Shown piece by piece: positions 1 through 5,552 of a DNA stretch of 64,000 nucleotides (positions are counted from its first letter, which is position 1; each line of letters opens with the position of its first letter). This DNA is from Parachlamydiales bacterium (GTDB taxonomy: Bacteria; Chlamydiota; Chlamydiia; Chlamydiales; SM23-39). The notes beneath the pieces are model-generated. The model saw only the letters and a list, made by a program, of their open reading frames with translations. It ran no database searches and had not been told where the DNA came from. Where the stretch lies: NCBI GenBank assembly GCA_050302075.1, contig JBNLAH010000002.1, positions 1-64,000 on the forward strand, written 5' to 3'. The position numbers and the translations under genes were made by a program.

Positions 1-1195
1 GTTCGAAGTTTTTAGCTATGCAAATAGGGCTTTTGATAAACAAAAAAAATTATCTTCAGATAGTAAAATTAAAGAAAGATCTAAAGCTATCCTTTCTACT
101 TTAAGCATCTTTTCATCTACAGCTGCTGATTTAATGACTGTTTCTTTCAGATTTGCAAGTCATTTAAAGACTTTGGATGATTACAACCAAAGCTTTAATC
201 TTAGAAGACCTTTTAGTAAATTATTTAAGCATTACAAAAAATTAGATTATAAGCTTGCTAAGCTTGTTAAGCTAGATGTAAGAGAGATAGAGTACAAAAG
301 ATATCCTTTGACATCTCGTTTAATTGTTGAATTGGAAAAAATCTCAAAAATCTCAAAGATAAAAAAAATAATCATAAAAGCTTTAATTGTAGTAGCTGTC
401 CAATTTACAGCAATTATAGATACCCTAACACTTCCCATTCGTCATTACACCCACTTAAAGATTACATCTAAAATTAATGAACGATCTTTACGCAGAAATC
501 GTATAACAGAAATATCAATGCTTTTTTTTATTTTCTATATAATAAAAGATTCTGCTGATTATATAAATCATCTTAATAGGAGAATGGATAGTTATTATAA
601 CAATAATTTTTTATTGAGCTCGGCTTTATTATTGGCTGGCTTATCGTGTGTCTCCTTATTTACTGAACACAAATCCATAGTGAAAAGTCTTAGGCAAGAA
701 GTGGCAAGGTTGCAACAAATAGAGGGAAATTGGCTACAAACAGCAGAAAATAACATCTTATTATCATTTCGAAATCTCAGATTAGAAAGACTGTTGCAAG
801 GCGTACAAGATCAAGAAGAGGGTGCCTTGTCATTACTAAATGAAAATCGTTCATTAATAGCTCGCATAGAGCAGATGGAGAAAGATAAGCCGGAAGTAAA
901 GCCTGTAGAATATGGTAAAATTCCTCCAAGTTATCTTGTCATGTCAAATGAGGAAGGAAGCAAGAAGTGTTCAATTTGCTTGGATGATGTAGATATTGCT
1001 GAATCAGTCACACATTTAAAAACTAGTGCAGGACTCCATGGTGCGCCGTGCTCAATTTTCTGCAGGAAGTGTATTGATCCGTGGCTTAAAAACAATTGTA
1101 GTTGTCCTGTATGTAAAGAGACTATTACTAAAAATAGCCTCAAATCTGTAGAAGTTTTTCCTTCTATCCCAAGTCATTATGGGGTTAAAGTTTAA
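1..1195 (+). CDS. Membrane-anchored RING-finger protein, paralogue 1 (5' end lies outside the window); candidate secreted E3-ligase effector
   Basis: The frame is open from base 2 (FEVFSYANRAFDKQKK...), matching the N-terminus of paralogue 2, so the ATG at 134 is internal. It has hydrophobic segments, a coiled coil and a C-terminal CSIC...VTH...PCSIFCRKC..W...CPVC. Confidence 0.85.
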   Translation, partial: FEVFSYANRAFDKQKKLSSDSKIKERSKAILSTLSIFSSTAADLMTVSFRFASHLKTLDDYNQSFNLRRPFSKLFKHYKKLDYKLAKLVKLDVREIEYKRYPLTSRLIVELEKISKISKIKKIIIKALIVVAVQFTAIIDTLTLPIRHYTHLKITSKINERSLRRNRITEISMLFFIFYIIKDSADYINHLNRRMDSYYNNNFLLSSALLLAGLSCVSLFTEHKSIVKSLRQEVARLQQIEGNWLQTAENNILLSFRNLRLERLLQGVQDQEEGALSLLNENRSLIARIEQMEKDKPEVKPVEYGKIPPSYLVMSNEEGSKKCSICLDDVDIAESVTHLKTSAGLHGAPCSIFCRKCIDPWLKNNCSCPVCKETITKNSLKSVEVFPSIPSHYGVKV

Positions 1196-1366
1196 CAGAT
1201 TTAAACTTGTTATTTTTTTCTGACTTTCCACCTTTAGTTATATTTTCTCTAAAACAATAAAGTACTATAGATTTAAAGCTGATAGAACAGTGGCTTTTAG
1301 TGTAATGAATCTTTTCAAATACTTGTAAGAGCTGTTTTTAGTTGCTTTGTCTTTTATATTCACTAT
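1196..1366. repeat. Conserved 3' flank of RING paralogues, copy 1
   Basis: Aligns with 2690-2828 and 4101-4250. The 35-nt core tctctaaaacaataaagtactatagatttaaagct is identical in all three copies. Confidence 0.9.
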
Positions 1367-1510
1367 TGTTATTCATTGGAAGTGAGGGACTTAAAAGAGC
1401 TCAAGAACAATGATTGTAAGAGTTATAATTAAATATTTATTAATTCAATTGAATGAAAATTTGTTTTTTTTCTATTATCCACGGCAATAATAATTAATTT
1501 TATGGTCTAA

Positions 1511-2689
1511 GTGCTTACAAATATTAATTTTTTACAGTCAAAGCCTGAGTTCGAAGTTTTTAGCTATGCAAATAGGGCTTTTGATAAACAAAAAAAATTA
1601 TCTTCAGATAGTAAAATTAAAGAAACATCTAAAGCTATTCTTTCTATTTTGAGTATCTTTTCATCAACAGCGGCTGATTTAATGACTGTTTCTTTCAGAT
1701 TTGCAAATCATCTAAAGACTTTGGATGATTACAACCAAAGCTTTAATCTTAGAAGACCTTTGAGTAAAGTAAATAGGTATTTTAAAAAATTGGATTATAA
1801 GCTTGGCAAGCTAGATGTAAGAGAATTAGATTACAAACCATTTTCTTTGACCAGTCGTTTAATTGTGGAATTGGAAAAAATTCCAAAAAGTTCAAAGATA
1901 AAAAAAATAATTACAAAAGCTTTAATTATAGCAGCTGCTCAATTCGCGGTTATTATAGATATAATCGCACTGCCTGCTCGCCATTACAGTTATTTAAAGG
2001 TTGTAGTTAAAAATAAGGAAAAAATGGTACGTCAAAATAATGCAGTACAAATTTCAATGATAGCTTTACTATCTTTCTCTCTGCCCATTTTAATAGCAGA
2101 AAATTCTTTTTTAAGAGGCTATAATGATGCGATAAGCTCTACTAATAGTTTTCTGTTATGTACTACTATACTTTTTGGAATAGTATCTATAGCACCCATT
2201 TTGCTAAAGAGTACAGGAAATAGTAATGTAGTAAATTTACAGAGAAATTTGCGGAATTCGCACTCTCAAAATTTGCAGTTGTATTCATATCTTGAGGAAG
2301 CAGAAGATGGTAACTTAGTATTGTTAGGTACTAATCGTTCATTGAAAGCTCGCATAGAGCAGATGGAGAAAGATAAGCCGGTAGTAAAGCCTGTAGAATA
2401 TGGTAAAATCCCTCCAGATTATATTATAATGTCAGATGGGGAAGGAAACAAGAAGTGTTCATGTTGTTTTGCGAAGAAAGGTATTGATAAATTGGTCACA
2501 CATTTAAAAACTAGTGCAGATCTCCATGGTGTGCCGTGCTCAATTTTCTGCAGAGATTGTATTGATGAGTGGCTTAAACAACCTAACGGTTATAATTGTC
2601 CTGTATGTAGAGAGACTATTACTAAAAATAGCCTCAGATCTGTAGAAGTTTTTCCTCCTATCCCAAGTCGTTATGGGGTTAGAGCTTAA
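1511..2689 (+). CDS. Membrane-anchored RING-finger protein, paralogue 2
   Basis: GTG start with the MLTNINFLQSKPEFEVF N-terminus shared with paralogue 3. Two hydrophobic helices, a coiled coil, then CSCC...VTH...PCSIFCRDC..W...CPVC. Confidence 0.85.
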   Translation: MLTNINFLQSKPEFEVFSYANRAFDKQKKLSSDSKIKETSKAILSILSIFSSTAADLMTVSFRFANHLKTLDDYNQSFNLRRPLSKVNRYFKKLDYKLGKLDVRELDYKPFSLTSRLIVELEKIPKSSKIKKIITKALIIAAAQFAVIIDIIALPARHYSYLKVVVKNKEKMVRQNNAVQISMIALLSFSLPILIAENSFLRGYNDAISSTNSFLLCTTILFGIVSIAPILLKSTGNSNVVNLQRNLRNSHSQNLQLYSYLEEAEDGNLVLLGTNRSLKARIEQMEKDKPVVKPVEYGKIPPDYIIMSDGEGNKKCSCCFAKKGIDKLVTHLKTSADLHGVPCSIFCRDCIDEWLKQPNGYNCPVCRETITKNSLRSVEVFPPIPSRYGVRA

Positions 2690-4109: not shown

Positions 4110-4250
4110 ACTTTTATTTTTTCTGGCTTGCCACCTTTAGTTATATTCTCTCTAAAACAATAAAGTACTATAGATTTAAAGCTAATAGCACAAAGGCTTT
4201 AAAATACTTATAAGAGCTGTTTTTAGTTGCTTTGTCTTTATATTCACTAT
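4101..4250. repeat. Conserved 3' flank of RING paralogues, copy 3
   Basis: Direct alignment with 1196-1366, with an internal deletion. Confidence 0.85.
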
Positions 4251-4394
4251 CATTAAATATTTAGCCAGGTTTTTAGAAAAACAAAAGATTTTGAAGTGCG
4301 AGAGTAGTGGAAATTTTTTAACGCATAGTTATGAAAAAGCTTTTTTTTCAATTAGCGCTTGTCTAGTATTTTTTTTACTTAAATTGTAAAAAAG

Positions 4395-5552
4395 ATGCTA
4401 ACAAATACTATTTTTTTTCAGACAGCGCCTGAATTTGAAGTTTTTAATTATACAAATAGAGCTTTTGACAGGCATAAGATTTCTTTTTCTGACACTAAAG
4501 CTAAAAAAGTAGCTAAAACTGCTTTCTCTGTTTTAGTTATCTTTCTATCAATAGCTACCGATCTAGCAACTGTTTCTTTTAGAGTTGCAAGTCATCTTGA
4601 GATTTTAAATGACTACAACCAAAGCTTTAATTTAAGAAGACCTTTGAGTAAATTGCTTAGGTATTACAAAAAAATAAATTATAAGCTTTTTAAGCTGGAT
4701 TTAAGAGAGTTAGAAAGCAAGAAATATCCTTTGACATTTCTTTTAATTGAGAAACTAGAACAAATTCCAAAAAGATCAAAAATAAGAAAAAAAATTTTCA
4801 GCATACTAGCTATAGCAACAGCTCAACTTACAGCAATTATAGACACTCTATCACTTCCTTATCGCCAACAAAATCACTTGGATGTTGTAATTCAAAATAA
4901 ATACCAAGCCTCTCGTATAGATTATGTAGCTAGATTGATACTCATTTCTGGGATAGGACTATCATTATTTAGAGTGAGTAGTTTATATGAAAGATTCAAC
5001 CTACCTGAAAATCTACATGAAAGCACAGAAGGAGCTGGATATTTTCTTATAGGTAGTGCCTTATTTTGTGCTTCCTTTGCTCTTTTTGCGGTATATGATA
5101 ATTTAAGAACTCAGGAAAAATTAAAAAACTCAGAAGATAACAATTTAATATTATCAAGAGCTAATAATCAGCTAAGGAATGCTAACTCTTCGGCTTTAGA
5201 AGAAATAAATCGACTGCAATTAGAAGTTCAGCGATTACAAGTTGTAGCATCTAGAGTTATAATGCCTCAAGACGTGCATATAATTTCAGAGGTAGAAAAT
5301 GCAGAAGACGCAAATATATGTCCCGTTTGTCGCATAACGGATTATAATAGCATTGAAGCCCCAGTTACACATATAAGTGCAGCTACGGGAGATATGTGTT
5401 CAATTTTCTGTAGAACTTGTGTATCTTCATGGCTTAATATAAATGACTCTTGTCCACAATGTAGACAGAATATTACAGCAGATAACTTAATATCCCCAGT
5501 AGACACTCCTACTAGAGAAATAATTATTCCAAGGCATTTCGTTAAGCCTTAA
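4395..5552 (+). CDS. Membrane-anchored RING-finger protein, paralogue 4 (most diverged)
   Basis: Shares the NDYNQSFNLRRPLSKL motif; CPVC...VTH...MCSIFCRTC..W...CPQC. Confidence 0.85.
   Translation: MLTNTIFFQTAPEFEVFNYTNRAFDRHKISFSDTKAKKVAKTAFSVLVIFLSIATDLATVSFRVASHLEILNDYNQSFNLRRPLSKLLRYYKKINYKLFKLDLRELESKKYPLTFLLIEKLEQIPKRSKIRKKIFSILAIATAQLTAIIDTLSLPYRQQNHLDVVIQNKYQASRIDYVARLILISGIGLSLFRVSSLYERFNLPENLHESTEGAGYFLIGSALFCASFALFAVYDNLRTQEKLKNSEDNNLILSRANNQLRNANSSALEEINRLQLEVQRLQVVASRVIMPQDVHIISEVENAEDANICPVCRITDYNSIEAPVTHISAATGDMCSIFCRTCVSSWLNINDSCPQCRQNITADNLISPVDTPTREIIIPRHFVKP

Follow-up and report, generated by a model that had tools for sequence, protein, structure and literature searches.

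The first 64,000 nucleotides of contig C2 (JBNLAH010000002.1) of a Parachlamydiales bacterium (GenBank assembly GCA_050302075.1; 89 contigs, 1.84 Mb, 96% complete), hereafter the window, open with an array of four paralogous genes, whose products combine a conserved N-terminal module (N-module), hydrophobic segments, a polar helix and a C-terminal RING-like finger. On the strength of sequence comparisons and structural models, we lean towards reading these products as membrane-anchored, dimeric RING-type E3 ubiquitin ligases of an uncultured environmental chlamydia that most likely act in the host cell. The original prediction, made from the DNA letters before any database search, had called them candidate inclusion-membrane ligases; the inclusion membrane now appears as one option among several host or bacterial membranes for the predicted anchoring.

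A tandem array of four genes ending in a variant RING finger

The open reading frame (ORF) listing of the window shows four ORFs on the + strand that fill positions 2–5552 as head-to-tail paralogues, just as the original prediction had it. All four are intact, comprise 385–397 codons and align over their full length. Copy 1 (R1, 2..1195, 397 codons) is open at its 5′ end, where the contig starts; copy 2 (R2, 1511..2689, 392 aa) begins with a GTG that aligns with the ATG of the other copies; copy 3 (R3) spans 2943..4109 (388 aa); and copy 4 (R4, 4395..5552, 385 aa), the most divergent, has an orthologue, P0004, in another organism. When aligned end to end, copies 2, 3 and 4 are 64, 62 and 42% identical to copy 1, respectively. 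The repeat unit consists of a gene with its spacer: spacer 1 (1196..1510), spacer 2 (2690..2942) and spacer 3 (4110..4394), all read on the + strand, are mutually homologous, blastn blocks run across them, and they were by this measure duplicated along with the genes.

The RING finger occupies aa 323–372 of copy 1 (968..1117), where Pfam, the alignment, the domain model and the fold search all place it, aa 316–367 of copy 2 (2456..2611), aa 310–360 of copy 3 (3870..4022) and aa 309–357 of copy 4 (5319..5465). Its candidate zinc ligands, namely C323, C326, H338, C350, C354, C357, C368 and C371 in copy 1 (with W361) and C316, C319, H331, C343, C347, C350, C363 and C366 in copy 2 (with W354 and R367), follow the pattern C-x2-C-x11-H-x11-C-x3-C-x2-C-x10/12-C-x2-C. 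None of the four copies departs from these eight, from the Trp or from the C-P-x-C at the end. The RING-like finger with its Trp and CPxC end, which had been claimed from the sequence, is borne out by profile and predicted fold. Canonical RING domains are spaced C-x2-C-x(9-39)-C-x(1-3)-H-x(2-3)-C/H-x2-C-x(4-48)-C-x2-C. The array proteins depart from this eight-ligand spacing, as their His lies 11 residues before ligand 4 (canonical 1–3) and replaces the C-x(1-3)-H; because the eight candidate ligands are conserved despite the non-canonical spacing, the finger qualifies as a variant RING.

RING domains contact their E2 enzymes through a hydrophobic residue before C2, a helix Trp, a Pro after C7 and a basic residue after C8. 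Copies 1–4 carry I, C, I and V before C2 and K, R, K and R after C8, and both the Trp and the Pro are present in all four. In an alignment of 13 RING segments (the four of the array, a fifth RING of the same genome and eight from sister genera), C1, C2, the His at ligand position 3, C6, C7, the Pro and C8 are present in 13/13 sequences, the E2-site Ile in 10/13, the Trp in 11/13 and the Lys or Arg after C8 in 12/13. The third ligand thus stands out as a His within a V-x-H motif, followed by a long loop and invariant in all 13 chlamydial sequences.

Database searches point the same way. The top Pfam match of each of the four copies is zf-RING_2, for which the gathering score (27.3 bits) is reached by copy 1 (34.3 bits) and by P0004 (27.7 bits). 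The profile built from the 13 segments matches 116 distinct sequences of the Protein Data Bank (PDB) at E ≤ 0.01, and all of the 60 matches listed are RING domains, headed by RNF4 (6e-14), RNF126 (1.1e-10), AMFR (1.5e-10) and HRD1 (8e-10), then Arkadia, EL5 and others. An AF2 model of the RING domain reached a mean pLDDT of 77.4 and a pTM of 0.66, with values of 80–93 across residues 21–80, and every Foldseek row listed for this model is a RING or a U-box, with RING1B as the best match (E 4.5e-3), followed by Rad18, RNF126, RNF4, TRAF6 and RNF13. Likewise, VIA-align returned RING or U-box folds in 50 of the 50 rows listed, at Z scores of 6.0–7.9, values which, being below 8, can reflect a common arrangement; RNF4 aligned at Z 7.3 with an rmsd of 1.5 Å over 57 residues, and the spliceosome chains at the top of this list are presumably the Prp19 U-box. 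Structure prediction, which had been proposed as a check, is thus in favour of the RING for the core of the domain model. By sequence and predicted fold, the C-terminal finger is a real RING, of a C2-H-C5 variant. Moreover, the conserved His as third ligand and the long loop after it define a RING variant that standard profiles under-score, which may explain why earlier surveys found few RINGs.

A conserved N-module, a variable hydrophobic pair and a predicted coiled coil

Upstream of the RING, copy 2 may serve to describe the architecture. Its conserved N-module (aa 1–170, 1511..2020) includes the hydrophobic segments H1 (aa 42–60) and H2 (aa 137–155), and is followed by a variable hydrophobic pair (2042..2206), H3 (aa 178–196) and H4 (aa 214–232), a candidate hairpin whose 17-aa loop has a net charge of −1 and whose flanks have +5 and +3. 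A polar helix comes next (aa 239–285, 2225..2365), and the RING is trailed by a conserved C-terminal tail (aa 368–392, 2612..2686) that ends in VEVFPPIPSRYGVRA and contributes to the modelled dimer interface. Hydropathy profiles reveal four hydrophobic segments in each protein: H1 (~aa 42–62) and H2 (~aa 134–155) lie within the N-module and are an internal repeat of each other, with a profile of aa 123–165 also matching aa 29–71 in all four copies, and H3 (~aa 176–196) and H4 (~aa 214–236) sit in the variable centre. On the Kyte–Doolittle (KD) scale (19-aa window, ≥1.6), H2 and H4 pass in 4/4 copies, H1 in 2/4 and H3 in 1/4; with a 15-aa window at 1.8, H3 passes in 2/4. The original prediction of a variable pair of hydrophobic helices hence stands in part: H3 and H4 are variable and joined by a loop of 16–23 aa, but the proteins have four segments rather than two, and copies 1 and 3 have a weak H3.

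The net charge is +3 to +5 for the N-terminus, +11 to +14 for the H1–H2 loop and +1 to +6 for the H2–H3 loop; it drops to between −3 and +1 in the H3–H4 loop (16–23 aa), the least positive of all, and lies between −1 and +3 over the 25 residues after H4. Since the H3–H4 loop is the least positive and the other flanks are neutral to strongly positive, the simplest topology would be a hairpin of H3 and H4 whose two ends share one side. H1 and H2, being flanked by basic sequence on both sides, would then be surface or bundle helices. The N-module, 56–87% identical among the copies, confirms the conserved N-terminal domain that had been noticed at the outset. Comparison of the N-module and the centre with Pfam gave weak noise only, residues 1–290 had no usable match in the ESM Atlas, and an NCBIfam scan yielded noise far under its cut-offs.

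The full-length model of copy 2 contains, at low confidence, a helix at residues 238–287, and by a crude heptad score the coiled coil is weak, with 2/4 copies passing. We predicted a dimer from two chains of copy 2 (aa 236–392) and four zinc ions, alongside three controls. The resulting model reached a median score of 0.46, compared with 0.00 for the best control; its runs have ≥50% of contacts in common, with a partner pLDDT of ≥69. When this test was calibrated, the mark was reached by 20 of 30 solved pairs and by 1 of 23 single chains; our run differs from that calibration by its own shallow (6-row) alignment and by the zinc. The modelled interface is a parallel, in-register coiled coil, in which identical residue numbers pair and contacts recur every 3–4 residues over aa 239–285, and it also takes in the conserved YGKIPPxY segment (297–307), one RING strand and the C-terminal tail (376–392). 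The dimer model supports a parallel dimeric coiled coil formed by the helix after H4. The coiled coil of the original prediction accordingly fares better in the dimer model than by the heptad score.

Mosaic evolution and a second array

Identity among the copies is distributed unevenly, at 56–87% in the N-module, 14–25% in the centre and 30–71% in the C-terminal part. The same mosaic is visible in the DNA: over its 5′ 598 nt copy 1 shares 88.6% identity with copy 3, and at its 3′ end 85.9% with copy 2, and no DNA match is detectable for the centre. Synonymous divergence (dS) in the N-module is 0.12 between R1 and R3 and 0.34 between R1 and R2; in the centre the same pairs differ by 0.74 and 0.94, respectively, and in the C-terminal part R1 and R2 differ by 0.10. 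Such uneven synonymous divergence along the genes points to gene conversion or recombination across the flanks. The ratio of nonsynonymous to synonymous divergence (dN/dS) is 0.30–0.53 in the N-module and 0.44–1.0 in the centre, the latter on an unreliable alignment.

Comparison with another organism qualifies the divergence of the centre. P0004 is 78% identical to copy 4 in the N-module, 70% in the centre and 60% in the C-terminal part, and its centre is 16–23% identical to those of copies 1–3; P0003 pairs with copy 2 (N-module 87%, centre 46%). Judged from these identities, the centre is not merely drifting, as it is divergent between paralogues and conserved in the orthologue. Because it differs between copies and is conserved between orthologues, the centre, comprising the hairpin and the coiled coil, probably sets partner, substrate or membrane specificity. 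The suggestion that the central segment may set specificity has therefore gained support (14–25% between paralogues versus 70% between copy 4 and P0004).

P0003 and P0004 both lie on the metagenome contig L131 (4692 bp), which comes from a second organism and carries a four-copy array of its own, in an order that differs from that of the window. First comes a copy-3-like gene truncated at its 5′ end, then a copy-1-like gene that lacks a RING and ends after a Q-rich tandem repeat, then a copy-2-like gene broken by a frameshift and a stop, and last a copy-4-like gene. By this comparison, the paralogues are older than the divergence of the two organisms, with individual copies gained, lost and rearranged. 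The window begins at base 1 of C2, an assembly break that cuts the array 13 codons into copy 1. Given the further copy upstream of the copy-1 orthologue in L131, a leftward continuation of the window array is plausible. This possibility had already been raised by the original prediction. On the other contigs of the assembly, neither blastn with the array nor profile searches that covered every six-frame ORF of 60 aa or more found an extra copy.

Distribution of the architecture and of chlamydial RINGs

The full architecture is rare. A word-indexed search of 5.8 billion proteins returned five matches, three of them the window's own, and an exhaustive HMMER search of 1.84 billion representatives placed the N-module in 6 clusters. 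The entire layout is retained in P0006, whose finger is degenerate (C-x-C ... C-P-C; zf-RING_16 at no better than E 0.017), P0007 has the N-module without a RING, and P0008 is a fragment. Across 60 related genomes, a full-length profile matched in 7, there only in the RING part, and a pattern scan of genome contigs for the array family gave 63 pattern matches, none of them a relative.

RING domains as such are far more widespread. At E ≤ 1e-5, the RING profile matches 138 of 400 chlamydial genomes, including 37 of 68 in the family to which the window organism belongs and 0 of 29 in one other family. The matches are often multi-copy and adjacent, as in genomes G007 (10), G311 (11) and G225 (7), and at G320:C10:23184-25098 and G218:C35:771-1656. 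Among 32 RING ORFs from the 29 best foreign loci, a sample biased towards likeness to the RING profile, the RING is N-terminal in 28, in the middle in 4 and C-terminal in none; 24 of the 32 have at least one segment at KD ≥ 1.6, mostly after the RING. Given the frequency of RING ORFs with hydrophobic segments across the phylum, membrane-associated RING proteins look like a phylum-wide theme, of which the window family would be an inverted, rare version. In environmental chlamydiae, small ORFs of the RING-H2-like kind occur frequently and often stand in tandem.

Secretion machinery and a possibly reusable N-module

The genome encodes one FHIPEP/SctV export gate, so that the gate of a type III secretion system (T3SS) is present, and four full-length TLC nucleotide transporters; its SctV is 75–82% identical to those of metagenome-assembled genomes labelled Chlamydiales, Chlamydiota or Parachlamydiales. 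Neither an E2 (UQ_con) nor a ubiquitin match was found in this 96% complete genome, by an E2 search that matched no control genome either, and the RING would hence need host E2s.

A fifth RING protein is encoded at the start of contig C1 (C1:359-1336, + strand; L006:377-1339). It has 320 aa, one hydrophobic segment and an IPPDY motif, and it has only the RING in common with the array (E 5e-11 over 56 aa). This RING is of the same His-x11-Cys-x3-Cys-x2-Cys variant, with an insertion of ~30 residues after C2 and a Tyr replacing the Trp. A further ORF of C1 (approximately 3332-4860, + strand; L005:1501-3028) starts with the N-module and has two hydrophobic segments: its first 85 residues match the N-module (jackhmmer E 1e-35), and they are followed by Ser/Gly/Thr-rich GFNFG-type repeats, a run of N and a DnaJ domain with HPD (PF00226, 4.3e-7). 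The ORF and the DnaJ domain across the run of N are probably one putative membrane-anchored J-domain protein; because of that run between the frames, the continuity of a single gene is not provable. Judging from this arrangement, the N-module appears to be a cassette ahead of different host-directed domains. GFNFG-type repeats are reminiscent of the FG repeats of nucleoporins; those of the C1 protein gave no Pfam nucleoporin match. Between the fifth RING gene and the J-domain gene lies, on the − strand, a gene for a leucine-rich repeat (LRR) protein (C1:1372-3108, approximately; LRR_4 1.1e-9) with N-terminal hydrophobic segments. A resemblance of its N-terminus to the H2–H4 region was considered and dropped as not significant (BLASTP E 0.68). 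The start of C1 is thus a small cluster of membrane-associated proteins with eukaryote-like domains (RING, LRR and J domain).

Genomic surroundings of the array

Recent horizontal transfer of the array was considered and set aside, as there is no compositional signal: the G+C content of the array (0.30–0.32) lies within the range of the window (0.29–0.38). Terminator-like sites numbered 3, compared with 2.2 expected from shuffled sequence, and both of those on the + strand fall inside RING coding regions. Directly downstream of the array, a 74-aa ORF (5715-5939, +) consists almost entirely of two hydrophobic stretches; it precedes a TspO/MBR gene (5983-6462). Farther on, a 238-aa ORF without a Pfam family (7551-8267, +) has several hydrophobic stretches by eye and could, from its sequence, be another Inc-like membrane protein. 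The gene at 12646-15507 (+) encodes 953 aa, of which the C-terminal half is a family-5 solute-binding (OppA-like) domain and the N-terminal ~500 residues have no family match. At 29992-32177 (+), a 168-aa family-less ORF stands ahead of genes for an MbnB/TglH/ChrH (DUF692) enzyme (1.3e-100) and for a DUF2063 protein; the gene content resembles a RiPP-type set for peptide modification, something not expected of a chlamydia. The rest of the window holds ordinary Gram-negative housekeeping genes, among them those for Lpt permeases, a 911-aa FtsH, GlgB, LigA and Tgt.

Proposed mechanism and alternative explanations

If the array proteins are ligases, they would be exported, probably by the T3SS, and inserted through the variable H3/H4 hairpin into a membrane that faces the host cytosol, either the inclusion membrane or that of a host organelle, with the basic N-module and the C-terminal part staying cytosolic. 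The polar helix after H4 would, as the model suggests, pair two chains in a parallel coiled coil and so unite two C-terminal RINGs, whose conserved tails lie in the modelled dimer interface. The RINGs could then recruit host E2~ubiquitin through their Ile/Trp/Pro surface and the basic residue after the last Cys, and the paralogue-specific centre would probably determine the partner, substrate or membrane. The N-module would act as a reusable cassette, which in the same genome also heads the putative protein with a C-terminal J domain.

Several observations weigh against this interpretation. Copies 2–4 score 19.8–21.9 bits with zf-RING_2, under the Pfam gathering score of 27.3, and Foldseek gave no match at E ≤ 0.001 for the RING model. 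Since ligands 3 and 4 are spaced by 11 residues (canonical 1–3), zinc site 2 remains putative, and copy 2 has a Cys in place of the Ile at the E2-contact position. In the membrane part, H3 is weak in copies 1 and 3 (KD 1.07 and 1.35), other topologies are possible since H1 and H2 are hydrophobic as well, and the H3–H4 loops contain charged residues, unlike the loops of known Inc proteins (PMC3048545). The full-length model is poor (pLDDT 41.3, 6-row alignment) and gives no reliable fold for the N-module and the membrane part, and the dimer pass may stem from the model's memory of solved coiled-coil RING dimers. As for selection, dN/dS of the RING part is 0.66–1.69, which could mean relaxed constraint, and single copies look dispensable, as in L131 one is RING-less and one broken. 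Promoter-like sites, finally, are not above chance in number (17 versus 27.9 expected from shuffled sequence).

Alternative explanations differ in where the proteins reside and in whether they ligate at all. They might be secreted RING E3 ligases anchored in a host organelle membrane, such as that of the endoplasmic reticulum (ER), mitochondria or endosomes, with the centre directing each paralogue to a different membrane. SneRING, the only characterized chlamydial RING ligase in the text of PMC12591485 that we draw on, shows partial association with the ER and with mitochondria. The better PDB matches of the RING profile include the ER membrane ligases AMFR and HRD1, the H3–H4 loops exceed typical Inc loops in length and in charged residues, and the hydrophobic pair differs among paralogues and is conserved in orthologues. 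However, the organism, its T3SS and the two close hydrophobic helices fit the operational definition of an Inc protein equally well, and we consider organelle anchoring unlikely, if worth keeping in view. The non-canonical spacing of ligands 3 and 4, the missing Ile at the E2 site of copy 2, the dN/dS near or above 1 in the RING part and the degenerate finger of the distant member P0006 would all suit a non-catalytic RING, whose membrane-tethered dimers would tie up host E2s, ubiquitin or a host RING partner on the surface of the vacuole and thereby block ubiquitin tagging by the host. This is improbable in our judgement, given that no copy has lost any of the eight candidate ligands, and that the Trp, the Pro and the basic residue that follows C8 are likewise present in all four, as an active RING needs.

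Bacterial inner-membrane proteins with a cytoplasmic zinc finger of bacterial function, unrelated to ubiquitin, would likewise show four hydrophobic segments and strongly basic loops (+11 to +14 between H1 and H2). Yet it is eukaryotic E3 RING-H2 domains that the RING most resembles, its E2-binding residues are retained, and no E2 or ubiquitin match was found in the genome itself; the N-module is joined to a J domain and adjoined by an LRR protein, an effector-like repertoire; and the tandem expansion with broken copies in a relative resembles published chlamydial effector families (PMC4209131). We give such an envelope role an equally small chance. A decaying gene family without current function, to which the RING-less L131 copy, the one with a frameshift and a stop, and the high dN/dS outside the N-module might testify, is very improbable: the four window copies are intact over 385–397 codons, the N-module has a dN/dS of 0.30–0.53, the zinc ligands are all invariant, and the centre is conserved between orthologues.

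Returning to the ligase interpretation, four paralogues with identical ends and different centres offer a compact system for studying how specificity is encoded. The phylum-wide count suggests that membrane-anchored ubiquitin ligation is a common, overlooked strategy of environmental chlamydiae. A bolder proposal, which we put forward tentatively and would not bet on, is that environmental chlamydiae hold a large undescribed class of membrane-tethered RING ligases, to which the window adds a rare solution: a portable N-terminal export and anchor cassette, shared with a J-domain protein, and a paralogue-specific hairpin and coiled coil that dimerizes a C2-H-C5 RING, each paralogue ubiquitinating a different host target at the interface of vacuole and cytosol. 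If true, bacteria would have here their own counterpart to the membrane ligases known as viral K3/K5 and those of host ERAD.

Comparison with known systems

RNF4 (4ap4) is the best PDB sequence match of the RING profile. The C-terminal tail of RNF4 takes part in the RNF4 dimer, and our dimer model similarly puts the conserved tail with its Tyr/Phe at the interface; RNF4 is, in contrast, soluble, binds SUMO chains and has neither a coiled coil nor a membrane part. HRD1 (synoviolin) and AMFR (gp78), which are among the better PDB matches, share with the array proteins the succession of a membrane domain and a cytosolic C-terminal RING, but their membrane parts show no similarity, and their canonical C-x-H at ligands 3 and 4 corresponds to His-x11-Cys in the window. 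The MARCH proteins and viral K3/K5 have an N-terminal C4HC3 RING-CH followed by two transmembrane (TM) helices, whereas the window proteins have C2-H-C5 ligands and a C-terminal RING; other chlamydial genomes do have the layout of an N-terminal RING followed by TM segments, with fingers of RING-H2-like type.

Among chlamydial proteins, a close precedent is SneRING (SNE_A12920) of Simkania negevensis, an active E3 with UbcH5b and UBE2T that has atypical zinc ligands (PMC12591485; Horner et al. 2025). It resembles the window proteins as a zinc-RING E3 of a chlamydia-like organism in which the ligands are atypical, comparable to the 11 residues between ligands 3 and 4 here. SneRING, however, consists of an N-terminal RING (residues 14–72) and a soluble C-terminal alpha/beta domain, and no membrane anchor is described for it in the text drawn on, whereas the window RING is C-terminal, behind the N-module, the hydrophobic segments and the coiled coil; going by these descriptions, the two are set apart. 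The same article lists an uncharacterized Simkania pair, SNE_A08700/SNE_A08690, which resembles the tandem arrangement of the window. In a 2026 review, SnRING figures as the latest addition and, among the effectors listed, as the only one to coordinate zinc, and true zinc-RING bacterial effectors are, going by the portion cited, rare in print (PMC13720258).

An expanded chlamydial family with a RING or U-box is also known from Neochlamydia, where NEX1b comprises an N-terminal RING/U-box, a conserved region of ~50 aa and LRRs; the families related to it follow birth-and-death evolution and have type III secretion signals functional in a heterologous assay, and, as far as the cited part of the article goes, no RING/U-box proteins other than NEX1b were found among the chlamydial genomes then available (Domman et al. 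2014, PMC4209131). The window family differs from NEX1b by its C-terminal RING, by its hydrophobic segments and by the lack of an LRR match in Pfam for any of the four copies.

The anchor, in turn, invites comparison with Inc proteins, defined by a pair of TM helices with fewer than 30 aa between them, by a type III secretion signal and by localization to the inclusion (Dehoux et al. 2011, PMC3048545). Like them, the window proteins come from a T3SS-bearing chlamydia, and they have a candidate pair of hydrophobic helices at a similar distance, H3 being weak in two copies, followed by a long helix or predicted coiled coil; unlike them, they carry the putative hairpin at a distance of ~175 residues from their N-terminus, after a conserved module that has two hydrophobic segments of its own, and its loop of 16–23 aa contains charged residues. 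A RING is not mentioned for Inc proteins in the portion of that study drawn on. Membrane-anchored ubiquitin-system enzymes of chlamydiae are represented by the deubiquitinases Cdu1/ChlaDUB1, SnVTD and SnOTU, with no anchored ligase described in the text cited (PMC13720258), and for chlamydiae we found no membrane-anchored RING effector or RING-bearing Inc in those parts of the open-access literature that our search reached. The combination of a chlamydial RING effector with an Inc-like anchor is, on this basis, not described before, and similar ones seem common in the group. The deubiquitinases share with the window family the tethering, predicted for the latter, of a ubiquitin-system enzyme to the pathogen vacuole by a TM segment, but they remove ubiquitin, whereas the window proteins would add it; a vacuole- or organelle-anchored ligase family would thus contribute an activity opposite to that of the anchored deubiquitinases at the same interface.

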